DNA from: Candidatus Saccharimonadales bacterium
GTDB taxonomy: Bacteria > Patescibacteriota > Saccharimonadia > Saccharimonadales > JBBQAJ01
Direction of reading: 5' to 3'
Assembly (NCBI GenBank): GCA_038206875.1
Contig: JBBRAK010000008.1
Span: 1 to 55,015, forward strand
DNA: 55,015 bases
Shown here piece by piece: positions 1,010-50,454 of this stretch. The notes below the pieces were generated by a model. It saw only the letters and a list, made by a program, of their open reading frames with translations, was not told the DNA's origin and did no database searches. The first letter of the stretch is position 1. Each line of letters starts with the position of its first letter. Made by a program: the position numbers and the translations under genes.

Positions 1010-1071
1010 CAAATCACATTTCCTCTCTCTGTAAAAGGTTTGACCTTTTGAAGTGTTAATTTTGTGAATTG
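1010..1071. repeat. REP-like palindromic repeat, copy 1 of 3
   Basis: caaatcacatttcctctctctgtaaaaggtttgaccttttgaagtgttaattttgtgaattg; near-identical to 8590-8652 and 15179-15238; core inverted repeat AAAAGGT-nnn-ACCTTTT. Confidence 0.9.
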
Positions 1072-1851
1072 TTATTTGGCTTTTTTGATTAGGAAAAAGA
1101 TGCTGGGTCCGAAGTATGTTTTAGCAAGGGTGAGTTGCATAATTTTTTCTAAAGTCAGCATAATCGATTTGGGAATAATTTTTTTAAGTCCGGGGCTACG
1201 CAGGTTGGAAACCGACAATACTTTTTCTACTTTGAACCCAGCATGAGCAAGTTGTTTAATCACCGTTTTGGGGTTGTGGTTAACGAACGCAATCTCTGAT
1301 TCATTTTTGTTTTTTGCGGACCTAATATCCACGGGTTCTGTGGGAAGGTTTTGAAATTTTATAATATGTTTAAGGCGGTTTCTGGCATGTGCGTAGTTTG
1401 CAACTTCTAACAACAGCCGTCCATCGTCACTCAGGACCCGGTGCAATTCTAAAAATTCCGCGCTTGGGTCTGGCAAATGATGCATAACTCGTATCATAGT
1501 TATCAGGTCTTGAGATTTGTCTGCAAGCCTTAGGCTATCTGCCTGAGTCTGAATTCTGTCGATTTCGGGGTGATCCTTTAGGAAGTCTTTTGCAATCTCT
1601 AGCTGTTGCTTTGACGGTTCAGCTAAAGTTACTTTGTCGGCAAATTTTTCCAAGAAAACACACAGTCTTCCGTACCCACCACCAATATCAGTTGCGGTTT
1701 TGAAGTGCTTGCCTTTGAGTAAAGATTTGATTGCTATTTCTTCTGATGCTTGTTCATACTCACGACCATCCCAATACCGTAAGTAATTATAATTGCCCTC
1801 ATCATACTGATCGGCTTTTTTTGGTTTGATTTTTGATGGGGGTTTTTGCAT
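1072..1851 (-). CDS. Class I SAM-dependent methyltransferase
   Basis: DIGGGYG SAM-binding motif, RVMHH, LHRVLSDDG. Confidence 0.85.
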   Translation of the reverse strand: MQKPPSKIKPKKADQYDEGNYNYLRYWDGREYEQASEEIAIKSLLKGKHFKTATDIGGGYGRLCVFLEKFADKVTLAEPSKQQLEIAKDFLKDHPEIDRIQTQADSLRLADKSQDLITMIRVMHHLPDPSAEFLELHRVLSDDGRLLLEVANYAHARNRLKHIIKFQNLPTEPVDIRSAKNKNESEIAFVNHNPKTVIKQLAHAGFKVEKVLSVSNLRSPGLKKIIPKSIMLTLEKIMQLTLAKTYFGPSIFFLIKKAK

Positions 1852-1873
1852 TACGAGGGATTAGTATATCAGT

Positions 1874-3106
1874 TTAATTGTTATCGACAATTGCAAAGCT
1901 ATTTTTGCCACGTTTTAGTAAGTTTAGTCCCTTTTGGAAATGAATACTTTGCTCAGGCAAAACCCTTTGACCGTTTAGCGTTAGTGAACCTGCTGAGTGG
2001 AAGTTTCTAGCTTCACCCTTTGAACCTGCTAAGCCTGCGGAACAGACGACTTCATATGTATCATCTCTGGCAGGAACCACCGGCAGTTCAGTTGTAAGTA
2101 CTTGTTTTTGTGCCTCATCTAGCTCCAGGAAGCTTCCCTTGCCAAACAATACTTCACTTATTTCCTGAACAGCTTTTGCCCTAATTTCTCCATGAACCAG
2201 CTTGGATACTTCGTATGCGAGAGTTTTTTGAGCAAGTCTGTCGCCAGGATTTAATTTGAATTTATCTAGCAATTCTATGATTTCTTGTTTTTTTAGAAGT
2301 GTGTAGGTTTTCAAGTACTCTTCAACACTCTCATCGTCAACATTTAGCCAAAATTGATAGAACTTGAATGCGCTGGTCTTTTTTTCATCTAACCAAACTG
2401 CACCTTCTTCTGATTTGCCAAATTTTGCACCTGTTGTTTTGTTTATTATGAGAGGCATGCTCAGAGCATGAACTTCTTTGGTTTCTTTTTTGCGTATTAG
2501 TGAGACCCCTGAAATTAGGTTTCCCCACTGATCGGATCCACCAATTTGTAAAACAACACCGTGATTGTTGTGCAGTTGCCAGAAATCAAATCCCTGCATC
2601 AATGAATAACTAAACTCAGCATAGCTTATTCCCATACCGTCTTTTCCCATGCGCTCAGCTACAAAATCACGTTGCATGAGCTCTGTCATCGAAAAATGCT
2701 TACCAACTTCTCTTAAAAAGTCCACATATTTGAGCTTTGACAGCCAGTCATAATTATCAACAATAGTAAATTTTTGCTCACTAAACAGACTTTTTACTTG
2801 TGCTTCAATCCCCTTAATATTACTAACAACCTGCTCTCTGCTCATCAGTATGCGTTCTTGGTTTTTGCCACCTGGATCACCAACTAACGACGTACCACCG
2901 CCCATAAGCATATATGCATGCCAACCGTTCGAGGCAAGTCGTCTGGCCAATAAAATTATTGCTAGATTACCTACCGTCAGACTATCTGAAGACGCGTCAA
3001 TTCCTAAGTAGAAAGTCTGGCTGTTATCTAGCCATGAGTTATCGGCAAATGTTTTGTCTTTTATCAAACCACGCCATTTTAGTTCTTCTGATAGTGTCGT
3101 TGACAT
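1874..3106 (-). CDS. tyrS: Tyrosine--tRNA ligase
   Basis: YLGIDASSDSLTVGN, GDPGGK, QIGGSDQWGN, KFGKS, C-terminal S4-like domain. Confidence 0.97.
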   Translation of the reverse strand: MSTTLSEELKWRGLIKDKTFADNSWLDNSQTFYLGIDASSDSLTVGNLAIILLARRLASNGWHAYMLMGGGTSLVGDPGGKNQERILMSREQVVSNIKGIEAQVKSLFSEQKFTIVDNYDWLSKLKYVDFLREVGKHFSMTELMQRDFVAERMGKDGMGISYAEFSYSLMQGFDFWQLHNNHGVVLQIGGSDQWGNLISGVSLIRKKETKEVHALSMPLIINKTTGAKFGKSEEGAVWLDEKKTSAFKFYQFWLNVDDESVEEYLKTYTLLKKQEIIELLDKFKLNPGDRLAQKTLAYEVSKLVHGEIRAKAVQEISEVLFGKGSFLELDEAQKQVLTTELPVVPARDDTYEVVCSAGLAGSKGEARNFHSAGSLTLNGQRVLPEQSIHFQKGLNLLKRGKNSFAIVDNN

Positions 3107-3170
3107 AATTAAAACCAGTATAACATCTCTAGAATTGTCAGCTATTTTTCAACTTGAAATTGCATAAGTT

Positions 3171-3179
3171 TGCTATAAT
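3171..3179 (+). promoter_or_regulatory. Extended -10 promoter of the PBP1A gene
   Basis: TGcTATAAT upstream of an AAGGAG Shine-Dalgarno and ATG 3212. Confidence 0.6.
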
Positions 3180-6211: not shown

Positions 6212-6214
6212 GGA

Positions 6215-8589: not shown

Positions 8590-8652
8590 CAAATCACATT
8601 TTCCCTCTCTGTAAAAGGTCCGACCTTTTGCAGGGATGGTTTTTGTGATTTG
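8590..8652. repeat. REP-like palindromic repeat, copy 2 of 3
   Basis: caaatcacattttccctctctgtaaaaggtccgaccttttgcagggatggtttttgtgatttg; outer IR caaatcaca/tgtgatttg plus a long inner stem. Confidence 0.9.
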
Positions 8653-11133
8653 TTATTCGGATACTTTGGAATATTCTAGGTCTGACTTTTTGGCAGTAAT
8701 TTTGACTATGTCACCTTTTTGGAATTTACTATCAAGGAGCTCCGTTGCGATGTGATCCTCCAATGTATCTTGTAGCAATCTCCTCATGGGACGCACTCCA
8801 TTTTTTGCATCATATCCGTTTTTTAGTAAATATTCTTTGGCGCTTGCAGTTAATTGAAGACCAATCCCGTGTTTGACAAGTCTTTGACGAAGTTCGTTAA
8901 TTTGCAAATCTAATATGCTCAAAATATCTTTTTTCGTAAGTGCTCTAAAGACTATAGTTTTATCAATTCTATTCAACAATTCTGGCCGCATCATTTTTTT
9001 GAGTGCATCGTTGACTTTATCTTTATTTGCTTGATGTAGACTGTCCAGGTCATCCATGTCCGCGCCTGAACCGACCTGAAATCCTAAAACTGCTTCTTTT
9101 TGAAGTCTTTCTGCACCAATATTGCTTGTCATGATGATTATTGTGTTGCTAAAGTCGATTTTGCGTCCTTTGGCATCTGTTAGAGTGCCATCTTCTAGCA
9201 CTTGTAGGAGCATGTTGAAAACATCCGGATGTGCTTTTTCGATTTCGTCAAAAAGTACTAGACTATACGGTTGTCGACGAATTTTGTCAGTCAACTGACC
9301 GCCATCGTCATATCCAACATAGCCAGCAGGCGCACCGACAAGACGCGAAACGTTGTGGTGCTCATTGAACTCGCTCATATCAATTTTTACCAAAGAGTCT
9401 TCTGACCCAAAAAATTCACGTGCTAAAACTCGAGCAAGTTCCGTCTTGCCAACTCCTGTTGGTCCTAAGAATATGAATGAACCAATTGGTCTACCTTCAG
9501 CTCCGACACCAGAACGATTACGACGAACGGCCCTGGAAACAGCGCTAACCGCTTCACTCTGACCTATCACATGCTTACTAAGGTTTTTTTCTAGATTAAG
9601 TAGATATTTTGCCTCAGAACGTATAACTTTGCTTACCGGCACACCTGTCATTCGAGCAACTACGTCTGCAACGTCATCGCTACTCATGGTGAGCCTTTTG
9701 GTGGACTTTCCGCTTGCTTCTAGCTTCTTCAAATCTTCCGATATCTGGCTGGCACGTTGTTTGAACTTTGCTGCTTTTTCATACTCTTCGTTGTCAGCAG
9801 CGATTTCGCGTCGAGAATTTATTAGCTTTAATTCTTTTTGTAACTTTCGAACTTCTGGTGGAGTAATGCCCTTGTCTATTCGCAAGTATGCTGCTGTTTC
9901 ATCCAATAAATCGATTGCTTTGTCTGGCATAAACCTGTCGTTAATGTACCTTTTTGACAAAGTAACAGTGTCTTCCAATACTTCGTCGCTCACTTTGACT
10001 CCATGGAAAGCTTCGTAGTGCCGGCGGAGGCCTTTTAAGATAGCATATGTTTCTGGAACGGTTGTTTCTGGAACTATTACTGGCTGAAAACGACGCTCCA
10101 GTGCTGCGTCTTTTTCGATATGTTTCGTATACTCTACGGTTGTAGTTGCCCCTACAAGCTGGATTTTGCCCCTTGCCAAAGCTGGCTTCAATATATTTCC
10201 GGCGTCCATGGCGCCTTCTGCAGCGCCTGCACCAACAATCAAATGTAGTTCATCTATAAAAACAATCGCCTTTTTATCTTGCTCCAGCTCAGCCATAACT
10301 TTTTTTAATCGTTCTTCAAACTCCCCACGATACTTTGTACCCGCAATCATACCGGCTAAATCGAGCATGATTATTCTTTTGTCTAGCAAACTATCTGGGA
10401 CATCTTCGCTAACAATCCTTTGGGCCAAACCTTCGACTATGGCTGTTTTACCGACACCCGGTTCGCCAATCAATACTGGGTTGTTTTTGGTACGACGATT
10501 TAGTATGGTAACTACTCGCTTTATTTGCGGTTCTCTACCAACAACTGGATCTAGTTTGCCCTGTCTTGCCATACTGGTCAAGTCCGAACCATAAAAATCG
10601 AGTGCTGTTTTCCGCTGTTTTTTGCTTCGTTTCCTATCGCCAGTTGCTATATCGTTATCTTCTTCGTATTGCTGACGGTTTAGGAACTGCTCTAGTTCAT
10701 TGTTTAGTGCATCAACATTCACATTCATATCCGTCAGGAGCTTTGTTGCTCGAGCGTTTTTCTGACTTAAAATACTATATAAAATATGTTCCGTACCTGT
10801 GTACTCTTGACTGAATTCTTGTGCTACGTCTTGAGCCATTTTGAGTGTAAGTTTGGCAGTTTCGCTAAGTCCTTTTCCACCGAGATTGATAACAAGTGTC
10901 TTTGGTGTCAAATTCAGCACTAATCGAGCTCTGTCCAGACTTACCCCCGCATCTGAAAGAATCTTCGCCCCCATACTACTGTCCTGGGCTAGTACACCTA
11001 ATAGTAGGTGCTCAGTCCCAACATACGCTGCACCAAAACTTCGAGCAATTGCATCTGCATGCTTAAGACTACTTAGTGCATTGTCAGTTAGGTGATTTAA
11101 AAATTCTTGAAAATCTGGTGATTGCGGCATCAT
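8653..11133 (-). CDS. clpC: ATP-dependent Clp protease ATP-binding subunit ClpC
   Basis: Two Clp-N repeats, GEPGVGKT and GPTGVGKT Walker A motifs, short UVR coiled coil, LGF ClpP-docking loop. Confidence 0.93.
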   Translation of the reverse strand: MMPQSPDFQEFLNHLTDNALSSLKHADAIARSFGAAYVGTEHLLLGVLAQDSSMGAKILSDAGVSLDRARLVLNLTPKTLVINLGGKGLSETAKLTLKMAQDVAQEFSQEYTGTEHILYSILSQKNARATKLLTDMNVNVDALNNELEQFLNRQQYEEDNDIATGDRKRSKKQRKTALDFYGSDLTSMARQGKLDPVVGREPQIKRVVTILNRRTKNNPVLIGEPGVGKTAIVEGLAQRIVSEDVPDSLLDKRIIMLDLAGMIAGTKYRGEFEERLKKVMAELEQDKKAIVFIDELHLIVGAGAAEGAMDAGNILKPALARGKIQLVGATTTVEYTKHIEKDAALERRFQPVIVPETTVPETYAILKGLRRHYEAFHGVKVSDEVLEDTVTLSKRYINDRFMPDKAIDLLDETAAYLRIDKGITPPEVRKLQKELKLINSRREIAADNEEYEKAAKFKQRASQISEDLKKLEASGKSTKRLTMSSDDVADVVARMTGVPVSKVIRSEAKYLLNLEKNLSKHVIGQSEAVSAVSRAVRRNRSGVGAEGRPIGSFIFLGPTGVGKTELARVLAREFFGSEDSLVKIDMSEFNEHHNVSRLVGAPAGYVGYDDGGQLTDKIRRQPYSLVLFDEIEKAHPDVFNMLLQVLEDGTLTDAKGRKIDFSNTIIIMTSNIGAERLQKEAVLGFQVGSGADMDDLDSLHQANKDKVNDALKKMMRPELLNRIDKTIVFRALTKKDILSILDLQINELRQRLVKHGIGLQLTASAKEYLLKNGYDAKNGVRPMRRLLQDTLEDHIATELLDSKFQKGDIVKITAKKSDLEYSKVSE

Positions 11134-12492: not shown

Positions 12493-12521
12493 AGTATAGA
12501 CTTGCCACGGTGTGTTGTCAA
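12493..12521 (-). promoter_or_regulatory. Near-consensus sigma70 promoter of nusA
   Basis: TTGACA (12521-12516), 17 nt spacer, TATACT (12498-12493). Confidence 0.8.
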
Positions 12522-12564
12522 TCGGACTGCAAATTGTGATTCCATGTCTGTTAAAATATATTCA

Positions 12565-15174
12565 ATGACAAAGGACGTAAAAAGGCTGTTCGGACAGTTT
12601 CAGCCTACAAAATATATCTTGGACATAGTAGTCGACAGAGACAACATGACTTTTAGTGGCATGGTAATAGTAAGTGGCACAAGAAGTGGTCGACCCAGCA
12701 ACAGACTTACATTTCATCAAAATGGCCTTAAAATAACTTCGTGTCATTTGGTAAAGAATGAGAAGCAAGGTGATCACGAGATTAATGTCGATAGGATTAA
12801 TCATCACAAAAAATTTGATGAAGTTCGTTTGCATTCATCTCAAGCTTTACACAGCGGTCAATATACAGTGAAGATGGAGTTTTCTGGAGTTATATCCAGA
12901 CATATGAATGGCATATATCCATGTTTTTTTGAAAAAGGCGGCGTGGAGCAAAAAATTATAGCCACTCAGTTCGAAAGCCATCACGCACGAGAAGTATTCC
13001 CTTGCGTCGATGAACCAGAAGCAAAAGCAGTTTTCGAACTGACACTTACCAGCCCAGCAGGTGAAGCCGTTCTGTCCAACACCCCAATAAAAAATCAAAA
13101 AACTTCAAATAAGAGTTTCATTACAAAATTTCAGCCTACGCCTCGCATGTCTACATATTTATTGGCATTTGTTTTTGGGAATTTGGAGTTCAAACAGGCA
13201 AAAACCAAAAACGGTGTCGTTGTTAGAGCATATGCTACACCCGACAATGTAGAATTTACCAAATTTGCTCTGGAAATTGCCGTAAAGTGCCTTGATTTTT
13301 ATAACGAATACTTTGGCATTGACTACCCTTTGGACAAATGTGATTTGATTGCTTTACCTGATTTTGCAAGTGGTGCCATGGAAAACTGGGGGTGTATCAC
13401 ATTTCGAGAGTACGCCATGTTGTTAGACCCCAATAACTCAACATTATCTACCAAACAATATGTCGCACTTGTAGTTGCTCATGAGCTAACTCACCAATGG
13501 TTTGGTAATTTGGTTACAATGCGATGGTGGACCGACCTATGGCTTAACGAGGGCTTTGCTAGCTGGATGGAATATTTGGCAATAGACCATTTGTTTCCCG
13601 ACTGGCAGTTGTGGACACAGTTTGCGGTTGACGAACAACAGCAGGCTTTGAAGCTAGACGCTCTAGAAAATACTCATCCAATAGAAGTTCCAGTACATCA
13701 TCCTGACGAAATTCGGACAATCTTCGACACTATAAGCTATAGCAAAGGTGCGAGCGTTATAAACATGCTCCATGACTACATGGGACCGGATGCTTTTCGG
13801 GACGGGCTTCGCCATTATTTGCAAACTTACAAATACAAAAACACAGACACGGTCGATCTTTGGACAAGCTTGGAGGAAATATCTGGAAAACCGGTGAACG
13901 AATTTATGCACAAATGGACAAGTTTGCCGGGATTTCCAGCACTTGAGGTTAATGTAGACGAAAACAAAGTTAGTATTGAGCAGTCTCGCTTCTTTGCCAA
14001 CCCCAAACACAAAAAAATTGATTACTCGCTATGGCCAGTTCCACTACTTGGAGACCAAGACACTGTCAGCACGCTAGCGACAAAATCTACTAGCCTGGAA
14101 ATTATAAATCCTCAAATTTTAAAGCTTAATCAAGGTCAAAGTGGGTTTTACCGAGTAACATACAACGCCACCCACGTTCAAACATTAGGACAACTTATTA
14201 AAAAAGGTCGCATAAGCCCATTGGACAGATTAGGGATTTTGACAGATTTGTTTGAAACGGCGAAAGCTGGAAAATATGACACAGTAGACACGCTGAATTT
14301 TTTAAAAAACTTCGCTCACGAAAATAATTATGCAGTTTGGGACAGCATTGCTAGCCTAATTGGTAGCGTACGACTTGTCATGGGTGACGACGAACTAAGA
14401 AAAGTCATGAAACCATTTGTACGGAAACTGGTTACTCCCGAGCTCAACCGACTTGGATGGGAAAGAAACAGCAACGATAGCCATTTTGACTTACTGCTAC
14501 GTCCGATTATTTTAGGACTCGCGGCTAGCGCAGATGATACCTTTGTTGTGAATCAATGCAAAAAACTTTTTGAACAGATTGTAAATTTGGAAGCAAAAGA
14601 CACAAATCCCGAGTCATCAACGAGCGAGAAAAGACCTCTCCCGAATATGCATTTTGACCCTGACTTGCGAGGCATTGTGTATGGGACAGTTGCTAGGCTT
14701 GGTGGAGCAAAAGAGTTTAATAAATTACTATCCCTTCACAACAAATCAAGGCTCAGCGAAGAGCGAACTTCTTTAGCTGCAGCTTTAACAGGTTTTAAAC
14801 AGCCAAGCTTGGTGGAGCGTGCCCTTGCAGAAATCACCACCAAAACTGTACGTTTACAGGATGTTTCATATTGGATTGCTTACAGTTTTATGAATAGGCA
14901 TGCTAGGGATTTGACTTGGGAATGGATGCAAATCAATTGGGGCTGGCTTAGTGAAAACCTAGGCACTGATTTGGCTTTTTACAGAATGCCGATGTACTCG
15001 GCGCGAGTTTTCAGTGATAAAACGTTCATTAAAAAATTCAGAGATTTCTTTTTACCAAAAATGTCACCGGCGCTTGAACGTTCATATAAACAAGGATTAG
15101 AAATTTTGGAAATTCAAACCGACTGGAAAATAAGAGATCAAAAAGAAGTAAAATCGTTCTTCAAAAATCAATAA
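12565..15174 (+). CDS. pepN: M1 family aminopeptidase N
   Basis: GAMENWG, HELTHQW...WLNEG, ERAP1-like C-terminus. Start placed at ATG 12565, with TAAAAT 7 nt upstream. Confidence 0.95.
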   Translation: MTKDVKRLFGQFQPTKYILDIVVDRDNMTFSGMVIVSGTRSGRPSNRLTFHQNGLKITSCHLVKNEKQGDHEINVDRINHHKKFDEVRLHSSQALHSGQYTVKMEFSGVISRHMNGIYPCFFEKGGVEQKIIATQFESHHAREVFPCVDEPEAKAVFELTLTSPAGEAVLSNTPIKNQKTSNKSFITKFQPTPRMSTYLLAFVFGNLEFKQAKTKNGVVVRAYATPDNVEFTKFALEIAVKCLDFYNEYFGIDYPLDKCDLIALPDFASGAMENWGCITFREYAMLLDPNNSTLSTKQYVALVVAHELTHQWFGNLVTMRWWTDLWLNEGFASWMEYLAIDHLFPDWQLWTQFAVDEQQQALKLDALENTHPIEVPVHHPDEIRTIFDTISYSKGASVINMLHDYMGPDAFRDGLRHYLQTYKYKNTDTVDLWTSLEEISGKPVNEFMHKWTSLPGFPALEVNVDENKVSIEQSRFFANPKHKKIDYSLWPVPLLGDQDTVSTLATKSTSLEIINPQILKLNQGQSGFYRVTYNATHVQTLGQLIKKGRISPLDRLGILTDLFETAKAGKYDTVDTLNFLKNFAHENNYAVWDSIASLIGSVRLVMGDDELRKVMKPFVRKLVTPELNRLGWERNSNDSHFDLLLRPIILGLAASADDTFVVNQCKKLFEQIVNLEAKDTNPESSTSEKRPLPNMHFDPDLRGIVYGTVARLGGAKEFNKLLSLHNKSRLSEERTSLAAALTGFKQPSLVERALAEITTKTVRLQDVSYWIAYSFMNRHARDLTWEWMQINWGWLSENLGTDLAFYRMPMYSARVFSDKTFIKKFRDFFLPKMSPALERSYKQGLEILEIQTDWKIRDQKEVKSFFKNQ

Positions 15175-15238: not shown

Positions 15239-15580
15239 TTATATGTCTATTACAAAGTTGGTGTCTTGATAGTTGTTTCCGGTGATTTCAATGGCTGAAA
15301 GTTGGTAATCACCGACCCATTCGTTTTTGGAGCACCACAATTCAGCCGCGAACGACATTTGTTTTTGCTTGTTTTTTGTTATGTATTCCAGACCAGATCC
15401 AAAAAGAGTTGATTTACGATACTTTACTTCTACAAAATATATAGTTTTCGATTTTTCAGCAACAATATCAATTTCACAATATTTGGTTCGCCAGTTTATA
15501 TCTCTAATCTTGTAGCCCTCCCTCAAGAGATAAGCCGACGCAACCTGTTCTGCATGATGACCGACAGAATAATTTGTCAC
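15239..15580 (-). CDS. yraN: YraN family (UPF0102) putative endonuclease
   Basis: G..AE..A..YL, NWR...EIDIVA, FVEVKYR; adjacent to rnhB. Confidence 0.9.
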   Translation of the reverse strand: MTNYSVGHHAEQVASAYLLREGYKIRDINWRTKYCEIDIVAEKSKTIYFVEVKYRKSTLFGSGLEYITKNKQKQMSFAAELWCSKNEWVGDYQLSAIEITGNNYQDTNFVIDI

Positions 15581-41926: not shown

Positions 41927-41945
41927 TTCTCCTCCCCAAAAACTA

Positions 41946-42043: not shown

Positions 42044-42901
42044 CTACTCATGTTCGCCTCGAATCTTCCCCCCGAGTGTACGAAGCTCATGAAGTGCCTT
42101 TACTGCCTGTTCGTGGTTCGGTTGGGTTCCGTGCCAATGAAAGTCATACTCCATAAAATCTACACCTTTGCCAGGTATCGTATGCGCAACAATCATAGTC
42201 GGCTTTTCTACTATGGCTCTTCCCATGGCGAAAGCATCGATAATTGCGTCCATGTTATTTCCGTCAATTTCCAACACGTGCCAGCCAAACGCTTCCCACT
42301 TGTCTTTGAAATCTTCCAACGGCATGACCGATTCGGTAGGACCATCAATCTGAATATTGTTTCTGTCTGTAATCGCGATGATATTGCTTAGTTTGTATTT
42401 ACTGCCCAGCATTGCAGCTTCCCATACATTTCCTTCGTCTTGTTCGCCGTCACCCATAACTACATATATCCAGCGGTGAGAAGTTTTATTCATACGCATA
42501 GCGAGAGCCATACCACATGCCTGGCTTAACCCACATCCAAGAGGTCCGCTAGTGTTTTCTAGCCCCGGTAATTTTGTTCTCTCCGGGTGTCCCTGAAGTC
42601 GAGTGCCAAAGGCTCTCAGCGTCATGAGCTCCTTAGTGTCAAAATATCCAGCATGCGCCATAGTTGCGTATTGGACAGGTACACAGTGACCATTGCTTAG
42701 TAGTAGTATGTCGCGTTCATCCCAGTCAGGATTTTTTGGGTCATGTTTCATAATGTCAAAATACAAAGCTGTAAAAATGTCTGCAAGTCCCATTGGCCCA
42801 GCACTGTGCCCACTTTTCGCATGCTCTAACATCTTAATTATGTCTACGCGTATGGCATTTGCTTTAAGTTCTAGCTCTTCGATCGTGAATTTTTTTGACA
42901 T
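42044..42901 (-). CDS. Transketolase N-terminal subunit
   Basis: SGH, LSNGH, LQGHP, SGPLG, GDGE..EG..WEA TPP motif, HTIPGKG. Confidence 0.93.
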   Translation of the reverse strand: MSKKFTIEELELKANAIRVDIIKMLEHAKSGHSAGPMGLADIFTALYFDIMKHDPKNPDWDERDILLLSNGHCVPVQYATMAHAGYFDTKELMTLRAFGTRLQGHPERTKLPGLENTSGPLGCGLSQACGMALAMRMNKTSHRWIYVVMGDGEQDEGNVWEAAMLGSKYKLSNIIAITDRNNIQIDGPTESVMPLEDFKDKWEAFGWHVLEIDGNNMDAIIDAFAMGRAIVEKPTMIVAHTIPGKGVDFMEYDFHWHGTQPNHEQAVKALHELRTLGGKIRGEHE

Positions 42902-42905
42902 AAAC

Positions 42906-43538
42906 CTACTTTGATATTACTGATAACAGTTTATCATAAGCGGTTTTAGGGTCTTCGGATTTTTGTATAAAACCACCGACGTTCAAAACGTCTACACCAC
43001 CCTCTACTAACTGTTTTGCATTTTGGTCACTTATTCCACCATCCCAGGCGATTTGTACACCCGGATGATGCTCGGCAGTTTTTTGTACTTTGCCCAAAAG
43101 ACCTAAGTCTGTCTTGCCACCGTGATAACCTAAATTTCCACTAAAAATCAAAACCTGGTCAAAGCTATGCATTATTTGATAGGCAGTTTCAATTGGAGTG
43201 TCTTGCAAAACCGCCAATCCGACCTTAATCCCAGACTTGTGAAGTTCTGCCGCAAAATGCATGTGATGAACTTCTGCTTCTTTATGAATAATCACCATAC
43301 GAGGGTTCATTTTGATTAATTGCTGAATGCACTCCATGGGCTTTTGGTACATCAAGTGTATATCCGCTTGGATGTGATGCGGCCACCATATCTCGCTAAG
43401 TTCTGGTGATTTGGATGGGGCAAATTCTCCGTCCATCAAATCTATATGAACTGTATTTGTAAATGGTGCAATTCGCTCCATCTGAGCGCGGTATTCGTGT
43501 GTATCAAAAGCCGTAACGGTTGGACAAATCACCGCCAT
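42906..43538 (-). CDS. rpe: Ribulose-phosphate 3-epimerase
   Basis: HIDLMDG, DIHLM, WDGGI; TGATG overlap with rpiB. Confidence 0.9.
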   Translation of the reverse strand: MAVICPTVTAFDTHEYRAQMERIAPFTNTVHIDLMDGEFAPSKSPELSEIWWPHHIQADIHLMYQKPMECIQQLIKMNPRMVIIHKEAEVHHMHFAAELHKSGIKVGLAVLQDTPIETAYQIMHSFDQVLIFSGNLGYHGGKTDLGLLGKVQKTAEHHPGVQIAWDGGISDQNAKQLVEGGVDVLNVGGFIQKSEDPKTAYDKLLSVISK

Positions 43539-44032
43539 CAATTTTGCTCGTCGATTTTTTTGATCCTTCGCGCATGTCGCTCAAGCCCTTCGAATGTAGT
43601 TTCCAACCATAAAGTAACTGCATTTTCTATGTCTGTATTGTCTAAAAATCTCGCTGCTAAGCTTAGCATGTTGGCATTATTGTGGTCTTTTGACAAACGC
43701 AAAATTTCAAATTCGTCCTGAGCGGTATCGCCCTCTGCATTGATACTTCTTTTTGCAATTGCTGGGCCGTAATATACAGCGCACCTTACACCTTTTACCC
43801 TGTTTGCGACCATTGCTTCTCCTTGACCACTTCCTCCCCACAAAATTCCTACTTCACACTCTCCATTTGCAACGGCTTTTGCCGCCGGAAATATAAAGTC
43901 TGGATAATCATCAGACATGTCTAAAGTTTTCGGCCCGTAATTTACACATAGGTGCCCTTTTGATGTCAAAAACTTCTCTAGTGATTTAATCTCATCAAAC
44001 CCAGCATGGTCCGTACTCAGTGCTATCTTCAT
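43538..44032 (-). CDS. rpiB: Ribose-5-phosphate isomerase B family protein
   Basis: DHAG, DDYPD, GGSGQG, HNNAN, RHARRI. Confidence 0.88.
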   Translation of the reverse strand: MKIALSTDHAGFDEIKSLEKFLTSKGHLCVNYGPKTLDMSDDYPDFIFPAAKAVANGECEVGILWGGSGQGEAMVANRVKGVRCAVYYGPAIAKRSINAEGDTAQDEFEILRLSKDHNNANMLSLAARFLDNTDIENAVTLWLETTFEGLERHARRIKKIDEQN

Positions 44033-44050
44033 AGTCTAACTCTACCATAA

Positions 44051-44162
44051 GCGAATGTTTTTTAGCGAAAGGTCGTCCAGCGAAATGTCGCCCGAGAAAT
44101 GCCAGATGCAGGCTCGCATTTTCTCGGCGCGAAATGCTAGCTTGAGCAAAAAACGTGAGCGT
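44051..44162 (+). repeat. Long palindromic element (tandem-GA type) downstream of gap
   Basis: GCGAATGTTTTTTAGCGAAAG...CTTGAGCAAAAAACGTGAGC outer stem; inner CCGAGAAATGC/GCATTTTCTCGG stem. Confidence 0.7.
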
Positions 44163-45203
44163 CTAGTCGTGATGTGATGTGTGGTCTACTTTTCCGTGCA
44201 GGGCTTTGCCCAAATCTGCTACAACTTCAACCAAACGATTGCTGTAACCCCACTCATTGTCATACCAGGCGACAACTTTGAGCATGTTTCCACCAACTAC
44301 GGCTGTCAATTTTGTATCAACAATTGCTGAATGACTATTTCCTATAAAGTCACTACTTACTAACTCTTCCTCAGTTACATCTAAAATTCCTTGGTAAAAA
44401 GGCTCGCTTGATGATTTCTTGAATACGTCGTTTACTTCTTCAACAGTGACGTTTTTCTTGGTTATAATCACAAAATCACTCAGAGAAACAACTGGAGTGG
44501 GAACTCTTATACTCAAACCACCAAATATTCCCTGCAAGGCGGGAAGTGCTTGTCCGGCAGCAATCGATGCACCGGTAGTAGTCGGTACGATGTTTTCGGC
44601 AGCACTCCTCGCTTCGCGTAAATCTTTGGCTGGTGCGTCCTGAAGTTTTTGACTAGCGGTGTAGCTATGGATTGTAGTCATCATGGCTTTTTCTATTCCA
44701 AAATGGCTTTCTATTATCGCTGCAACCGGTGTTATGCAGTTGGTAGTACATGATGCATTACTTACGATATCTTCTGCATCGTCCAGGGCGTTTTCGTTAA
44801 CACCTAGAACGATTGTGGTGGCACCTTCGCCTTTGGCTGGGGCGCTAATAACCACTTTGTGTGCTCCTGCATCGATATGCGCGCGAGCTTTGGCAGGGTC
44901 CACAAAAAACCCAGTTGATTCAATCACTACATCCACTTTGAGCTCTTTCCAGGGCAGAGCTGATGGTTCTTTTTCTGCAAGAACCTTGATATGTTTACCA
45001 TCCACGATTATGTTTGTCTTGTCGGAGCTGACATCATGTTGGTAGGCGCCGTAGTTACTGTCGTGTTTTAGCAGATGAGCAAGGGTCTTTGTATCTGTCA
45101 AATCGTTGATAGCAACAATTTCACAGTCAGTCCTGTCGAACGCAACCTTGAAAGCATTTCTGCCAATACGCCCAAATCCGTTTATCGCTATACGCGTTTT
45201 CAT
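44163..45203 (-). CDS. gap: Type I glyceraldehyde-3-phosphate dehydrogenase
   Basis: INGFGRIGR, SNASCTTNC, WYDNEWGY. Confidence 0.98.
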   Translation of the reverse strand: MKTRIAINGFGRIGRNAFKVAFDRTDCEIVAINDLTDTKTLAHLLKHDSNYGAYQHDVSSDKTNIIVDGKHIKVLAEKEPSALPWKELKVDVVIESTGFFVDPAKARAHIDAGAHKVVISAPAKGEGATTIVLGVNENALDDAEDIVSNASCTTNCITPVAAIIESHFGIEKAMMTTIHSYTASQKLQDAPAKDLREARSAAENIVPTTTGASIAAGQALPALQGIFGGLSIRVPTPVVSLSDFVIITKKNVTVEEVNDVFKKSSSEPFYQGILDVTEEELVSSDFIGNSHSAIVDTKLTAVVGGNMLKVVAWYDNEWGYSNRLVEVVADLGKALHGKVDHTSHHD

Positions 45204-45275
45204 AGATTATTACCACCCTTTTTAAGCTTTAGCATTTAACACCATTGTACGGTGCAATTTACCCAAGTGCAATAT

Positions 45276-45866
45276 TTATCTGTCTACTTCTATGCCTTGA
45301 AATTTTTGCAAAGATGTAAGTTCTCTGAGACTGTTCACGTTTTCAAATATTTCTTTGCTCTCGGCTAGATATCCGGACTTCGTAATACTTAGGTTTTTTA
45401 CTGTGTCAAAATCAAGCAATTCTAATGTTATTTTCTCTCCGGCATCGGGTTTTGCTGGTCTTACTTTTTTACCAGCCTGGGCTATATAAAGATATATAAA
45501 CCACTCCAACTTTGTATGCGGTTGCCAAACTCTAACCAATTTCCAATCTTCAAACTCGTATCCTGTTTCTTCTAACATTTCTCTTTTTGCAGCATGTAAA
45601 ATAGTTTCGTCGTCTTCGTCAACTCTTCCGCCAGGGAAACTTACTCTCGACCCAACGTGTGGTTGATCGTCGTCAATTACCAAAATCTTGTCGTCACATA
45701 TTCCTATAACCGTAACTGTGTCGGGCCTTCTAATCATTTCCCAGGTAGAAATAGAACTATCGAACCTAGAAAGTTGCCAATGATAAACATCGAAAATAAC
45801 ACCATCAAAAACTTTTTTTGCGTTATCAGGAATCAATACTGCATCTTTTGGGATGACTTTTTTCAT
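45276..45866 (-). CDS. NUDIX hydrolase (ADP-ribose pyrophosphatase-like)
   Basis: PGGRVD...AAKREMLEETG. Confidence 0.88.
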   Translation of the reverse strand: MKKVIPKDAVLIPDNAKKVFDGVIFDVYHWQLSRFDSSISTWEMIRRPDTVTVIGICDDKILVIDDDQPHVGSRVSFPGGRVDEDDETILHAAKREMLEETGYEFEDWKLVRVWQPHTKLEWFIYLYIAQAGKKVRPAKPDAGEKITLELLDFDTVKNLSITKSGYLAESKEIFENVNSLRELTSLQKFQGIEVDR

Positions 45867-46400
45867 CTATGCGTCTGTTTTGTAACGGGCTATGCACTCT
45901 GTGATGATTTTTTTGGCATCTTCGGCATTTCCCCAACCTAGGACTTTTGTTGAACCAGGTTTTTTGAGGTCTTTGTAGTGATTGAAATGATGTTCAATTT
46001 TCTGTTTCCACTGTTCATGCAAATCATCTAGAGAATTCAAAGCATCGCCCGTGTTTCTGTCATCGGATGGAACAACTACAATTTTGTGGTCCATTTCGCC
46101 GTCGTCTTCAAAGTTCAATACTCCCAGTACCTTGCCTTTAAGATACACGCCAGTTGGAATTGGGTCATTTGTAAGTACCAGTGTGTCTAGCTCATCACCG
46201 TCTTCGTCTAATGTTTGCGGAATAAATCCATAGTTGCATGGTTTAGCAAAAATACTTGGCTCGACGCGGTCAAGCTCAAAAATTGCAAGTTTTCGGTTCC
46301 ATTCAATCTTTAGCGTGGACCATTTTGGAATCTCGATTACTGTGTTTATTTCACCACCAGCAACATCTCCGGCGTCTAAAATTTTGTTAAAATCAGCCAA
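45867..46400 (-). CDS. ppa: Family I inorganic pyrophosphatase
   Basis: EIP, NYGFIPQT, DGDELD, D.GE.D.K, FNHYKDL; TTG start at 46400 after GGAGA. Confidence 0.93.
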   Translation of the reverse strand: MADFNKILDAGDVAGGEINTVIEIPKWSTLKIEWNRKLAIFELDRVEPSIFAKPCNYGFIPQTLDEDGDELDTLVLTNDPIPTGVYLKGKVLGVLNFEDDGEMDHKIVVVPSDDRNTGDALNSLDDLHEQWKQKIEHHFNHYKDLKKPGSTKVLGWGNAEDAKKIITECIARYKTDA

Positions 46401-46445
46401 TTTATTGTCTCCGTTTACTTCTTTGATATTGTACACTATATACGC

Positions 46446-47150
46446 ATGAAAATAATTGGACACCGTGGTGCAGCCGGTCTAGCACTCGAAAATACTATTG
46501 AAAGTGTAAAAGCTGCTGTCTCCGCTGGCGTAGACGCAATTGAAATAGACATTAGAGCAACCAAGGACAATAAACTTGTGTTGTGCCACGACAAAAATAC
46601 CAGCTCCATAAGCAAAGAAGCTTACAATATAAACGAATCCTCACTTTCAAAACTCCAGAAAATTAAACTCAACAACGGTCAAAACTTAATAACGCTTGAT
46701 CAAGCAATATTTTCCGCCCCCAAAACTCCATTTGTTATCGAAGGAAAAGATAGCCATTGGGCAAGACCACTAGCAAAAACGCTCAAAAATCACAAAAACC
46801 TTACAGACTATTACGTTATATCATTCAACCACCAAGAATTATATACTTTCAGTCGACTTGTTCCTGAAATCCCAGTCTGTGCCTCTGAAAATACCAACCC
46901 ATTTGAAGTAATCCGAACTGCACGGCTTCTGGGCTGTAATGGAGTTGTCATAAATTTTTGGCTTTTAAATCCTCTGACATATTTTTTGGCCCGAATCCAT
47001 AAACTAGACATAATTGTTTACACGGTAAACAAGAAGTGGATTGCCAGATTTATTGGAGTCCTATATCCGAATATAAGCATTATTACAGACGTTCCTAGCC
47101 AGTTCCAGTTTTTGCGCAAAAAAAGTCGTAGTCGTAAAAATGAAAGTTAA
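46446..47150 (+). CDS. Glycerophosphodiester phosphodiesterase
   Basis: IGHRG, ENT, EID...TKD, CHD, ISFN, YTVN, IITD. Confidence 0.9.
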   Translation: MKIIGHRGAAGLALENTIESVKAAVSAGVDAIEIDIRATKDNKLVLCHDKNTSSISKEAYNINESSLSKLQKIKLNNGQNLITLDQAIFSAPKTPFVIEGKDSHWARPLAKTLKNHKNLTDYYVISFNHQELYTFSRLVPEIPVCASENTNPFEVIRTARLLGCNGVVINFWLLNPLTYFLARIHKLDIIVYTVNKKWIARFIGVLYPNISIITDVPSQFQFLRKKSRSRKNES

Positions 47151-47826
47151 ATTTGATCGTCTAGAAAATTCTGCAAAAAATGTTAAAACCTTGTGGTTCA
47201 CACCCGAGAAATCTTTTGATTATACTGCAGGTCAGTTCGTAGAAATTTATCTACCGCACAAAAATGCCGACAATCGTGGGCAAAAACGCTGGTTTACCCT
47301 ATCTTCTTCTCCGAGTGAAAAACAATTAAGCATATCTACACGACAATCAACCGTCCAAATAAGTAGTTTCAAGCAAGAATTGTTTGCGCTCAAAAAAGGC
47401 GACATTATACATATATCCGAACCAATGGGGGACTTTGTCTTACCCAAGGACACCAAAAGGCCGATAGTTTTTGTAGCAGGGGGCATAGGAATAACTCCTA
47501 TGCGCAGTATGATCAAGTGGCTATATGATACGAATGAAAAACGAAATATAATTCTCATATACGGTATGAATAATACTGACGATTATTTATTTGATAGGCT
47601 GTTTGCGCGATATGGTATTCGTCCAAAAGTCGTTACTAAGCATGGCTCCATGGGGCCGATTACAGGACAGCTTGTCGAGAAGCTATCTCATCGTATACCC
47701 GAACAGTTGATATATATCTCAGGGCCGGAACCATTTACGGAAAAATTAGAGAAAGAACTGTTGGACTCTGGGGTCCCCAAAGAAAACTTAGTTCTGGATT
47801 TTTTTCCAGGTTATCAGTTAGATTAA
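47140..47826 (+). CDS. FAD/NAD(P)-binding ferredoxin reductase-like oxidoreductase
   Basis: YTAGQF, RWFTLSSSP, PMGDF, AGGIGITP, YISGP. Confidence 0.88.
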   Translation: MKVKFDRLENSAKNVKTLWFTPEKSFDYTAGQFVEIYLPHKNADNRGQKRWFTLSSSPSEKQLSISTRQSTVQISSFKQELFALKKGDIIHISEPMGDFVLPKDTKRPIVFVAGGIGITPMRSMIKWLYDTNEKRNIILIYGMNNTDDYLFDRLFARYGIRPKVVTKHGSMGPITGQLVEKLSHRIPEQLIYISGPEPFTEKLEKELLDSGVPKENLVLDFFPGYQLD

Positions 47827-48263
47827 TCATTTTGTTCAGAAAGTTGTTCTATGGTTCTAACGTAGGCATGTAACCTATCTTCGGGGATTGTTTTTGTGTA
47901 TCGTCGCAAAGCTTTGGCAAGTGTCGAATCTATCTTGGCCAATATGCGTCGACCTTTGAGAGTAATTGTTACTTGCTTGCCTCGATGATCTTGGGCCAAA
48001 GTTTGCTGTTTTGCATATTTCAGCCGAAGCAATCCCGCAACAAGAACGGTAACCTGAGGCAAAGTCACATCTAAATGCTTTGAAATCTCTGTCATACTCA
48101 GACCTTTTTTGGAACCAGATGATATGACTCCTAGAGTAAGCCATTCCATCATGGTTAATCGTTGTGACTCAATCTGCCTAGAGACTACCGCCCTCATTGC
48201 TCTTTCAGCTCGCACCTGCATAAGCAGTAGTTCGTGCATTTTTGGAAACACAAATTTATCCAT
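47823..48263 (-). CDS. MarR family transcriptional regulator
   Basis: Winged-HTH pattern LT..EW..L, MTEISKHL.VT...V, D.R...VTIT.KG. Confidence 0.8.
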   Translation of the reverse strand: MDKFVFPKMHELLLMQVRAERAMRAVVSRQIESQRLTMMEWLTLGVISSGSKKGLSMTEISKHLDVTLPQVTVLVAGLLRLKYAKQQTLAQDHRGKQVTITLKGRRILAKIDSTLAKALRRYTKTIPEDRLHAYVRTIEQLSEQND

Positions 48264-48272
48264 TACATCTAG

Positions 48273-48300
48273 CTTTACAAATAAACTTCAGGTTGTAAAG
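48273..48300. promoter_or_regulatory. Candidate MarR operator
   Basis: Perfect IR CTTTACAA-N12-TTGTAAAG, 9 nt upstream of the marR ATG. Confidence 0.5.
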
Positions 48301-48367
48301 TATTTTGTAGGACTGTCGTACATCATCGTAGCAACAGACCACAGATAGCTGGCTACAAACTGCCTAT

Positions 48368-49324
48368 TTATTTTCGTGCTTGTTCTTCCAGATAATTTCG
48401 CACCATCACCGACGCTGTTGCGCCTTCTCCGGTAGCGCTTGCAATTTGCATATTGGCTCCGCTCCTGACGTCTCCAGCAGCAAATATTCCTGGTATGTTC
48501 GTCTGCAAATCGTTGGATGTTTTAATCATTCCAATCTCGTCTAGCTCCACTGGTCCTTTTGCAAGAAACTGCGTGTTCGGCAGTAATCCGATAAAAACAA
48601 ATATACCATCCGTTACATAATCTACTTTTTTGCCATCTTTTGTGCCTACTACTTTTACAACTTTGTTCATACCCTCCACGTCGGCGCCAATTATTTCATC
48701 TGTAGTAGTTCCCAGGTGCACGGTTATTTTGTCTTTATGCTTAGTTAATTCATGTTGCAATATCTCACTTGCCTTTATTTTGCTTCGAACAAGCAGGTCA
48801 ATGTGAGTTGCAAATTTGGTCAGGAACAGCGCTTCTTGAATTGCCGAGTTACCACCCCCAGATACAACCAATTTTTTGTCTCGATAAAAAGCACCATCAC
48901 AAGTAGCACAGTAGTGTACACCACGGGCGTAATATTCTTTTTCTCCAGGTATGTCTAATTTTTTATAATCACTCCCAGTAGCAATTAATACCGATTTAGC
49001 ATAAATATTTCCGTCAGTCGTTTCTAGCTTCTTTAAATCTCCATCTACGGACAGTTTTAAAACTTCGCCGTATCGAATTTCTGTGCCGAAACGTAGTGCT
49101 TGTTTTTCTAATTTATCTGCTAGTTCTATCCCGGATATTCCTTCAGGAAAACCTGGATAATTATCTACCCAATCAGTAACTGCTGCCAGACCCCCAACAG
49201 CACCTTTCTCAAACAAAACAGTGTCAATATCTTCGCGTGTAGTATAAATTGCCGCCGTCAAAGCCGCTGGTCCTGCTCCCACAACTACTAAATCGTGAAT
49301 TTCCTTCTTAGTGTCTTCCGCCAT
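48368..49324 (-). CDS. trxB: Thioredoxin-disulfide reductase
   Basis: GAGPA, NYPG, IATGS, CATCDG, GGGNSA, FAAGD. Confidence 0.95.
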   Translation of the reverse strand: MAEDTKKEIHDLVVVGAGPAALTAAIYTTREDIDTVLFEKGAVGGLAAVTDWVDNYPGFPEGISGIELADKLEKQALRFGTEIRYGEVLKLSVDGDLKKLETTDGNIYAKSVLIATGSDYKKLDIPGEKEYYARGVHYCATCDGAFYRDKKLVVSGGGNSAIQEALFLTKFATHIDLLVRSKIKASEILQHELTKHKDKITVHLGTTTDEIIGADVEGMNKVVKVVGTKDGKKVDYVTDGIFVFIGLLPNTQFLAKGPVELDEIGMIKTSNDLQTNIPGIFAAGDVRSGANMQIASATGEGATASVMVRNYLEEQARK

Positions 49325-49443
49325 AAGTCTATCTATTCTACTTTATTAGAATGCCGTTTACCATTTTCTGTTTTCCGTTCACTATACATTTTCCATTAAC
49401 TGTTTACCTCGGAAAACGTTGAAAGTCTAATGAGGCCTTTTCT

Positions 49444-49692
49444 CTACGCTACGGCCGGAGCCAATTTTGCGAGGTTGTAGCCGATTACAACCTCTTGGCT
49501 GTCATCGCCCTTTGTAACTACAGTTACTGGCACGCTAAGCGCGCCACTGAGCTCAAAAGCTTCTTTTTGTCGCTCTGGGCTTGTGTCTAGGTTGACCTCT
49601 TCGTACTGGTAGCCTTTGGCGCCTAACCATTTTTTGACCATGCCACAGTAAGCACAGGTGTTTGTAGTGAAAATAGTGATGTTTTTGACCAT
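49444..49692 (-). CDS. Glutaredoxin-like (NrdH-type) protein
   Basis: CAYC active site, SVPV cis-Pro loop; directly upstream of trxB. Confidence 0.88.
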   Translation of the reverse strand: MVKNITIFTTNTCAYCGMVKKWLGAKGYQYEEVNLDTSPERQKEAFELSGALSVPVTVVTKGDDSQEVVIGYNLAKLAPAVA

Positions 49693-49796
49693 GTTTTTCT
49701 CCTTTTTTGTAGTTTTTAAACGATTCCTACCTATTATATATAGTGCTTATGCTATTTGTAAATACCCCATATGTTGTGCTTTTGTCATATTTCGCA

Positions 49797-49914
49797 GGTT
49801 TTTGTAGAATAATTCAGTTTGGTTAAAAATCGAGCATCGTAAGCGAATCGTACTATGAGGTACGGTGAGTGCGAAGCGCAGATTTTCAATCAAAATGGAC
49901 ATTTTACAAGAACC
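49797..49914 (+). repeat. 118 bp MITE/REP-like long hairpin
   Basis: 14 bp terminal IR GGTTTTTGTAGAAT/ATTTTACAAGAACC; apical GCGAATCGTAC-tatgag-GTACGGTGAGT. Confidence 0.7.
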
Positions 49915-50454
49915 CTATTCACCAATTTTTACGAGTTCGATGTCAAACACGAGAGGAGCATTGGCAGGAATACCTGAACCTTCCGGAGGGGTTGCGCCGT
50001 AAGCTTGGTCAGCGGGAATTATCAATCTTCGTGTTCCACCAACTTTCATGCCCGGAACACCGTTCGTCCAACCCTTGATTACTTGGTCCAGTGGAAAAGC
50101 AACTGGCTGACCGCTGTCGTGAGAACTTTGAAATATTATGCCAGTAGCGGCCACAGCACCAGTATAGTGTGCCGTTACGGTGTCTCCTGGTTTTACTTCA
50201 GCTCCGGTACCGACTACGGTGTCGATTTTTTCTAATTTGTCAACTGAGTCTACTGTTTGAAAATCTGATAGTTTTGTTCCCTGCAATTGCCCCTCCTTTG
50301 GTGCTTGATTTGTTTGTTGTGTGCTTTGGATGGAAGTATCTTGTTTTTTTTGTTCTCTTGCCTGCAGCACCACAATCACACTAACTGCCGCGCTAGTCCC
50401 AAAAAACAATACCGCTCCCACCAGCGCAAATACGCGTTCGTGCGTTTTCGCCAC
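49915..50454 (-). CDS. Membrane-anchored FKBP-type peptidyl-prolyl isomerase
   Basis: VTAHYTG, FQSS, VIKGW, MKVGG.R.LIIP...AYG, IPANAPLVFDIEL. Confidence 0.93.
   Translation of the reverse strand: MAKTHERVFALVGAVLFFGTSAAVSVIVVLQAREQKKQDTSIQSTQQTNQAPKEGQLQGTKLSDFQTVDSVDKLEKIDTVVGTGAEVKPGDTVTAHYTGAVAATGIIFQSSHDSGQPVAFPLDQVIKGWTNGVPGMKVGGTRRLIIPADQAYGATPPEGSGIPANAPLVFDIELVKIGE

Follow-up and report, generated by a model that had tools for sequence, protein, structure and literature searches.

The current analysis concerns six intergenic palindromes, e1 to e6, in a 55,015-nt contig (JBBRAK010000008.1 of assembly GCA_038206875.1) from a Candidatus Saccharimonadales bacterium. The window referred to below is this whole contig, and its genome, coded G000, is an assembly of 863 kb in 17 contigs that is rated 100% complete. 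The closest loci to the GAPDH gene of the window come from Candidatus Saccharibacteria/Saccharimonadales metagenome-assembled genomes (MAGs). In a sequence-only reading, the six palindromes had been taken together as elements that each lie directly against a minus-strand stop codon. Their coordinates and their contact with these stops (TAA for three, TAG for three) were both borne out by the present analysis. They do not form a single class, as the six fall into three families, represented by e1-e3 (the short family), e4 (family C) and e6 (family A), together with e5, for which no relative was found. Element positions were taken from the sequence and abutting stops from the list of open reading frames (ORFs) of the window. 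Scores refer to two models: R2, for which 18 copies of the short repeat were used, and R1, which rests on 7 sequences of family A.

1010-1071, + strand: e1, short family, a 63-nt element resembling repetitive extragenic palindromes (REPs); model R2 score 87.5 bits
1072-1074, - strand: TAA stop of ORF 1072..1851, flush with e1
8590-8652, + strand: e2, short family, a variant with almost full pairing
8653-8655, - strand: TAA stop of ORF 8653..11133, flush with e2
15179-15238, + strand: e3, short family, occupying the entire 64-nt gap between two convergent stops
15239-15241, - strand: TAA stop of ORF 15239..15580, flush with e3
41946-42043, + strand: e4, long hairpin of family C, with closing module AGCGAAU...AUGAGCG, a conserved apical part and the 3' tail CCTAC
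42044-42046, - strand: TAG stop flush with e4, within the conserved CCTAC tail of family C
44051-44162, + strand: e5, long hairpin between the GAPDH and rpiB genes, with the closing module nested twice
44163-44165, - strand: TAG that ends the GAPDH gene, directly abutting e5
49797-49914, + strand: e6, long hairpin of family A, with ends AGG...CCCTA; model R1 score 130.7 bits
49915-49917, - strand: TAG stop flush with e6, matching the terminal ..CCTA of a large family-A subgroup

The five elements other than e3 lie between co-directional minus-strand genes, and the start of e3 is also 4 nt past the TAA of the plus-strand ORF 12502..15174. On the side away from the stop, e1, e4 and e5 leave 18-22 nt of free sequence, which is the leader of the next gene; the free stretch measures 42 nt beyond e2 and 104 nt beyond e6. 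If each of these five elements were placed uniformly within its own gap, stop contact would have, by our own arithmetic, p ~0.03-0.16 each; e3 fills its gap.

The short-family elements e1-e3 are mutually 78-87% identical and have 16 loci in their own genome (nhmmer, and model R2), none of them inside a long ORF except for 15-nt overlaps at 3' ends. Model R2 matches 17 of the 151 genomes of the order Saccharimonadales that were searched, and G000 has the most copies. Across these genomes, the outer arms and the ATCTGT/ACAGAT segments are held in common and the inner hairpin varies by genome; in e1, the outer stem is formed by AAATCACA/TGTGAWTT and the inner stem by AAAAGG/CCTTTT, while the ends of the family read ..CAAATCACA and TGTGATTTG.. 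An identical imperfect middle segment is present in 11 of the 16 own-genome copies, which suggests that they spread from a master copy already bearing it. In 12 of the 16, an ORF that reads inward has its stop within -15 to +12 nt of an element end, and every one of these 12 stops is TAA; three ORFs run 15 nt into the short element and end at an internal TAA. The abutting stop belongs to an antisense-strand gene in eight of the 12 stop-touching copies and to a sense-strand gene in five, with e3 counted in both. A fixed target word was considered for this family and rejected, as the gene-strand flank reads ..ATAA(C/G/A) in only 5 of the 16 copies and differs in the others. The sequences flanking the 16 copies show no direct duplication.

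The short repeat is also found next to genes for candidate Y1/HUH enzymes that resemble REP-associated tyrosine transposases (RAYTs). When the 151 genomes were searched with Pfam PF01797 (Y1_Tnp) at its curated cut-off, 45 had matches above it, mostly in open frames of ~205-230 aa. The 22 RAYT-like proteins that were extracted form one ~204-aa family with an invariant HUH motif (NHFHLL) and conserved C-terminal blocks; 16 of the 22 have a Tyr at the position aligned to the catalytic Tyr of ISDra2 TnpA, and one member scores 31 bits against PF01797 (cut-off 23). Copies matching R2 lie on both sides of the RAYT-like gene in G002 (a congener of G000), G004, G047 and G085, whereas G074 and G071 have an R2 copy on one side and a second copy that was recognized by eye. 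Judged from sequence and gene order, the pairing of the short repeat with a RAYT-like gene in these six related genomes is a REPtron arrangement. Of the 17 genomes in which the short family occurs, 11 encode a PF01797 gene, versus 34 of the 134 without the family, and a perfect palindrome of at least 7 bp occurs within 130 nt of an ORF end for 18 of the 22 RAYT-like genes examined. The earlier expectation of Y1/RAYT genes flanked by the repeats was thus realized for the short family; for the long hairpins, no such link was found. IS200-like TnpA genes (146 aa) are found in a few of the 151 genomes and are separate from the ~204-aa RAYT-like genes. In G047, five full-length IS200-like TnpA matches have equal scores (C1:201234, C1:250149, C2:100088, C2:325770 and C3:36085), suggesting an active IS200/IS605 element.

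Family A, to which e6 belongs, is a family of 135-nt hairpins. Model R1 matches 91 of the 151 genomes, with ~425 matches in total and 0-22 per genome; covarying relatives of e6 occur in the congeners G002 and G003, and three further copies are present in G000. Like its relatives, e6 combines a conserved asymmetric core with a covarying outer stem, and compensatory changes are seen in 22 of 42 pairs among the 7 sequences of the model. Many ends among the 20 family-A copies of G067 read (N)TAGGAC...GTCCTA(C). Five of the 20, the ..CCTAC subgroup, read GTAG on the other strand; e6 reads ATAG. No direct duplication is evident in the flanks of these 20 copies, in which a self-complementary TA duplication could hide within TAGG...CCTA. 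Among the best copies from each of 30 genomes, 18 abut a stop codon (TAG 8, TAA 7 and TGA 3), so TAG is a subgroup trait and not a targeting rule. The split of the six elements into TAA and TAG is likewise no rule of targeting, the TAG being located within the ends of the long elements themselves. No adjacency between R1 and PF01797 matches was detected among the positions listed for the 151 genomes. A minus-strand promoter-like site lies at 49733-49762 (TTTACA, 18 nt, TATAAT; 11 of 12 positions). It separates e6 from the minus-strand ORF that comes next, so a transcription unit may end at e6.

Family C is found in 13 of the 151 genomes (this tally and that of family A each include G035, which is marked unpublished). 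A second copy is located at G000:C3:32839-32885, and there are relatives of e4 in other families of the order. The conserved tail of family C consists of GAGCG, 1-4 nt and then TAC. In e4, the tail CCTAC is GTAG on the gene strand, while the gene-strand tags of 10 module-bearing copies include GTAG in four, GTAA in three and ATAG in one. The tag of e5 reads CTAG. No blastn relative of e5 was found in the 151 genomes; the G001 sequence at the orthologous site appears, by eye, to have e5-like ends. The closing module is common to e4, e5 and the core of e6 and reads GCGAA ... stem ... UGAGC on the + strand, and tandem G.A pairs, which the sequence-only reading had described, are present in e4, in e5 (twice, nested) and in the e6 core. 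The module was also considered as a high-copy motif and rejected as one: a genome-wide regular expression (GCGA-stem-GAGY) returned the three window elements and otherwise chance matches only, so the closing module alone is not such a motif. No sign was found that the arms of families A and C are two inverted REP units; the conserved part of these families is the apex or closing module.

G000 holds further long hairpins outside families A and C. A third long-hairpin family has copies at G000:C4:62327-62468, C6:32324-32483 and C10:31100-31248, which are 142-160 nt long with folding energies of -59 to -76 kcal/mol; they lie 0-12 nt past stop codons, and their stable strand is sense to the upstream gene in 3/3. 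Two single hairpins, G000:C3:24491-24654 (164 nt, -95.8 kcal/mol) and G000:C1:81983-82142 (160 nt, -71.0 kcal/mol), both have the stable strand antisense to the upstream gene. Between convergent genes at G000:C7:8820-8944 there is also a 116-nt hairpin, the G+C-rich stem tip of which is flanked by A- and T-runs and therefore looks like a bidirectional terminator inside a longer palindrome.

When orthologous sites are compared among relatives, presence/absence differences are evident for e2, e4, e5 and e6, as had been anticipated. Neither G002 nor G003 has an element at the e2 site, and in both the C-terminus (..SE*) and the stop position are unchanged; the TAA pre-existed the element, as G003 has TAA without it. 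At the e1 site, the copy in G003 is diverged, while G001 and G002 have other sequence there. Among the long-hairpin sites, that of e4 is empty in G003, which has TAA at the same codon. The e5 site has a spacer of 21-24 nt in G002/G003 and 4-25 nt in more distant relatives, and the GAPDH stop codon is TGA in both G002 and G003. Likewise, the e6 site is empty in G002 and G003 and has only a 36-nt hairpin in G001, with TAA at the same codon in all three. Sites occupied by a long hairpin therefore read TAG in 5/5 cases (e4, e5 and e6 in G000; the e4 and e5 sites in G001), while those without one read TAA or TGA in 6/6 (five empty sites, namely e4 in G003 and both e5 and e6 in G002 and G003, plus the e6 site of G001), and the C-terminus of the abutting protein is unchanged across these sites while its stop differs. 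The TAG thus belongs to the terminal sequence of the long hairpins themselves. In G002, the e1 site is taken up by 245 nt of unrelated sequence and the e4 site by 123 nt encoding a small hydrophobic ORF, from which it follows that such spacers turn over by more than one route.

Both strands of the six elements were folded as RNA, with the minimum free energy (MFE) given in kcal/mol and z computed against shuffles:

e1: MFE -12.6 on the + strand and -10.3 on the - strand; z -2.35 and -1.34
e2: MFE -32.2 on the + strand and -22.4 on the - strand; z -7.67 and -5.16
e3: MFE -13.5 on the + strand and -11.4 on the - strand; z -3.08 and -2.25
e4: MFE -30.2 on the + strand and -26.5 on the - strand; z -2.23 and -2.03
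e5: MFE -39.2 on the + strand and -33.8 on the - strand; z -2.24 and -2.10
e6: MFE -45.8 on the + strand and -26.9 on the - strand; z -7.75 and -4.15

The + strand is the more stable one in 6/6, with a large asymmetry in e2 and e6 only; e1, e3, e4 and e5 are only ~2-3 standard deviations below shuffles, whichever strand is folded. In the variable outer stem of family A, the pair positions comprise 421 Watson-Crick, 58 G.T and 9 A.C cells across 27 copies, all from genomes outside the R1 training set, a count that the model-fitted alignment may inflate somewhat. The excess of G.T over A.C indicates that pairing is preserved on one strand, the strand defined by the asymmetric core. Selection for the folding of one strand is therefore real at the family level, in keeping with the one-strand pairing that had been noted in the window. 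Mutational skew was considered as a source of the G.T asymmetry and set aside, as the + strand skews of the contig are small (third-position GC +0.017, TA +0.078) and neither explain nor exclude it; the cross-genome count is the stronger evidence. Among 366 own-genome post-stop gaps of at least 45 nt that were folded, there was no general difference between sense and antisense strands and no link to stop type, so the folding signal is confined to the repeat families.

The placement of the family-A hairpins relative to genes is biased. An opposite-strand ORF has its stop at the 3' end of the folded strand in 18 of the 30 best copies from 30 genomes, compared to ~11 of 30 in which a same-strand ORF terminates at the 5' end (a few copies show both); in G067, 15 of the 20 copies have the opposite-strand stop. 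Stop-codon placement consequently extends beyond the window, as it does for the short copies. When only neighbors with ORFs of at least 100 aa are considered, ~17 of 29 family-A copies are antisense only, 6 appear to lie between convergent genes and 3 are sense, although two of the six "convergent" copies are really sense, because their small rpmA neighbor is missed by the ORF limit. Antisense placement is accordingly a real bias of about 3:1 and not a rule. The antisense folding proposed for the six elements stands as a tendency and falls as a rule, since one of the four family-A copies of G000 (C1:84573-84706) and all three copies of the third long-hairpin family have the stable strand sense to the upstream gene. 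The sole family-A copy of G002 (C2:18626-18761) is also sense and is located directly upstream of rpmB (ribosomal protein L28).

These observations establish family membership, strand-specific pairing, empty sites, the statistics of stop-codon contact and, for the short family, a REPtron-like linkage. From them, we consider it probable that all six hairpins belong to the non-autonomous palindromic repeats of REP/REPIN type, with the short family cognate to the RAYT-like Y1/HUH clade. The sequence-only reading had likewise proposed dispersed, non-autonomous REP-like elements, and in this it was sustained. The short family would be the cognate repeat of a Saccharibacteria-specific, ~204-aa RAYT-like Y1/HUH clade, and a Y1 enzyme acting on a folded single strand presumably spread the repeats. 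G000 may have since lost its RAYT-like gene, or the gene may be unassembled, leaving 16 orphan copies in place. The long hairpins e4-e6 would be separate, older and more widespread families that moved by a similar route, and they keep a purine-rich core or closing module together with covarying stems, with many G.T and few A.C pairs on one strand. Two reasons are proposed for the contact with stop codons. The ends of the elements contain a stop triplet for an inward-reading gene, which is TAG in the TAGG...CCTA/GTAG-like tails of the long elements and, in the short ones, a TAA within their A/T-rich ends, such that a gene running into an element would end at once. With gaps of ~35 nt, moreover, insertion would be tolerated only in the few bases that separate a stop codon from the ribosome-binding site after it.

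Several findings weigh against this interpretation. The window contains no mobilizing enzyme, as had been noted previously, and there is no Y1 gene in G000 as a whole (PF01797: 0; the best E in tblastn with the 22 RAYT-like proteins is 0.11), so its 16 short copies are orphans, barring a gene hidden in an assembly gap, and mobility here, in an assembly of 17 contigs, is either historical or dependent on an unassembled gene. The RAYT-like protein scores 32 bits against a cut-off of 80 for NCBIfam REP_Tyr_transpos (REP-associated tyrosine transposase), and a ten-member profile matches ISDra2 TnpA in the PDB weakly (E 0.03), with the HUH motif and catalytic Tyr aligned. An alignment of 18 copies of the short family has no GTAG tag at either end. 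For the long hairpins, the closing module of e4-e6 has 0 matches within 300 nt of the 22 RAYT-like genes, and a search of 14 loci yielded one R1 match, 325 nt from a Y1 gene. Of the five genomes with the most family-A matches, three (G067, G111 and G133) lack a PF01797 match, and the overall association (family A in 33 of 45 PF01797 genomes versus 58 of 106 others) is weak and confounded by kinship, for which reason it was not used as support. The G.T-rich strand of the hairpins is opposite to the GTAG-bearing strand, which has no obvious fit to the RAYT model of E. coli. Comparisons in which the nearest relatives have ~72-76% DNA identity yielded neither a target-site duplication nor a clean insertion junction; when a metagenome scan was run with the 211-aa protein whose gene lies between e4 and e5, nothing closer than 75% amino-acid identity was returned. 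Lastly, a sense family-A copy lies between a methyltransferase gene and rpmA (ribosomal protein L27) in G000, G003, G122, G004, G074 and G129, at the same position in at least four families of the order. Such conservation points to an RNA-level role for that copy at least, and judging from its position, the copy may have an RNA-level function, possibly as a conserved leader or processing element.

For the long hairpins, two other accounts deserve consideration. It is possible, if somewhat doubtful, that e4-e6, with the rest of families A and C, form a Saccharibacteria-wide class of mobile single-strand hairpins, each with a stop codon of its own, selected for folding of the strand opposite the mRNA and moved by an enzyme other than the RAYT-like protein described above, at least the rpmA copy having been co-opted as an RNA element. 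A stop codon at the tip of the terminal repeat would allow a long hairpin to insert at the stop of a gene, or to take its place, harmlessly. We regard it as rather unlikely that the long hairpins (A, C and e5) act mainly as structured RNAs, or as modules of RNA, on the folded strand and that their spread is secondary, in which case they would serve as protein-binding or processing elements, within a leader or 3' untranslated region (UTR) when sense and within an antisense transcript elsewhere. The conserved asymmetric, purine-rich core with its tandem G.A pairs, the covarying stems and the 58 to 9 ratio of G.T to A.C pairs on one strand would all be expected of such an RNA, as would the retention of the sense copy upstream of rpmA in six genomes and of another before rpmB in G002; in ~6 of 29 copies, which are located between convergent genes, the folded strand is in addition the 3' UTR of the other gene. 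However, most family-A copies are antisense to both neighbors (~17 of 29 only antisense, 3 sense), no promoter is evident for the long hairpins, and copy number ranges from 0 to 22 among related genomes with differing positions. Rfam also returned no match at gathering score across the whole window and nothing relevant at E<=5, the sole such match over 41800-50100 being a Na+ riboswitch at chance level (18.5 versus 40.5 bits).

Two further explanations concern the position of the elements at gene ends. That they are ordinary gene-end signals, either intrinsic terminators or stabilizers of mRNA 3' ends that are merely alike, would account for their location at gene 3' ends, the location of e3 between convergent genes and the 11/12 promoter match just past e6 on the gene strand. 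In e2, the inner 14-bp hairpin and T-run (8606-8636) is even called terminator-like; yet this sole call is on the + strand, antisense to both neighbors and not on the mRNA strand of the upstream gene, no intrinsic terminator is called at e4-e6, and the mRNA strand is the weaker fold in 6/6. Given that copies sharing 78-95% identity over 60 nt are found at loci with no relation to one another, and across separate families of the order, that copies flank transposase genes and that the orthologous genes of congeners do without the elements, we find this explanation improbable. Stop contact could alternatively be a mere by-product of genome compaction, with neither stop-bearing ends nor any insertion preference. 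The coding density of G000 is ~89% and its median post-stop gap is about 35 nt (34-37 nt, ORF-based gene set), and the 18-22 nt beyond e1, e4 and e5 are just the leader of the next gene. However, e2 and e6 touch their stops despite 42 and 104 nt free on the far side, TAG occurs at 5/5 long-hairpin sites and at 0/6 sites without one, the CCTA(C) ends are conserved at unrelated loci, and the short-copy stops are TAA in 12/12 compared to 52% TAA genome-wide (TAA 445, TAG 253 and TGA 158 of 856 in total). Compaction alone does not explain the placement of e2 and e6 or the change of stop type, and as a full account it is very improbable.

Saccharibacteria genomes are among the smallest and most compact of bacteria, and yet they keep several selfish-looking hairpin families. 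The short family together with its dedicated Y1 transposase clade would provide a testable mobilizer and would extend REP-RAYT biology to the candidate phyla radiation (CPR). The long hairpins are present in well over half of the genomes searched, conserve a purine-rich core, pair antisense to the genes that they touch and supply the TAG that ends them. There are also implications for the annotation of MAGs, as such repeats alter stop codons and gene 3' ends and break assemblies. REP/RAYT systems and the supply of stop codons by REP ends are already known; new here are the RAYT-like gene family, its REPtron-like link to the short repeat and the comparison of stops at occupied versus empty sites. 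Our literature search, with subscription journals outside its reach, yielded unrelated papers only, none of which treats RAYTs, REPs or other palindromic repeats of Saccharibacteria/CPR.

When compared with known systems, the elements share features with several of them. MITEs have terminal inverted repeats matching those of a DDE transposase as well as target-site duplications. Like Correia/NEMIS, ERIC, RUP and other MITEs, the six elements are small non-coding intergenic palindromes of a kind that sometimes provides signals for neighboring genes, whereas their terminal inverted repeats follow from palindromy and no duplication is seen in the flanks of the 16 short copies or the 20 G067 copies, apart from a TA duplication that the TAGG...CCTA ends might conceal. 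In IS200/IS605 elements and PATEs, a Y1 HUH enzyme recognizes a folded single strand and inserts it strand-specifically by a short fixed word without target duplication. Behavior of this type would fit elements that are always preceded by TA(G/A); unlike IS200/IS605, no LE/RE pair was found here. REPINs, as described by Bertels and Rainey, are reportedly REP doublets that form long hairpins. The present elements resemble them in being hairpin repeats of ~100 nt or more with long vertical inheritance, a copy number that varies by lineage and a single-copy RAYT elsewhere in the genome, but families A and C conserve the apex or closing module and not the arms.

Among REPs proper, the passages of Di Nocera et al. 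2013 (PMC3733652) that treat the GTAG super-family describe termini that often supply TAG stops and stems in which G.T pairs are frequent. The TAG found at occupied long-hairpin sites matches the stop supply described there, and the ..CCTAC ends of a family-A subgroup are likewise similar to the GTAG REPs of that account. Unlike the 20-40 nt stems of GTAG REPs, the long hairpins are 100-135 nt with conserved internal loops; their tag is on the less well folding strand, and no flanking RAYT-like gene was found for them. The short family differs from the REP/REPtron systems of E. coli, Pseudomonas and Stenotrophomonas in its nested 60-nt two-stem layout without a GTAG tag, in an enzyme that represents a distinct ~204-aa clade below the NCBIfam RAYT cut-off and in a CPR/Saccharibacteria host with few copies (16). 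Like those of REPtrons, its repeats are short, imperfect, intergenic palindromes located mostly after ORFs, a Y1_Tnp-family gene is flanked by them, the repeat variant follows the enzyme lineage and orphan repeats occur in genomes without the gene.

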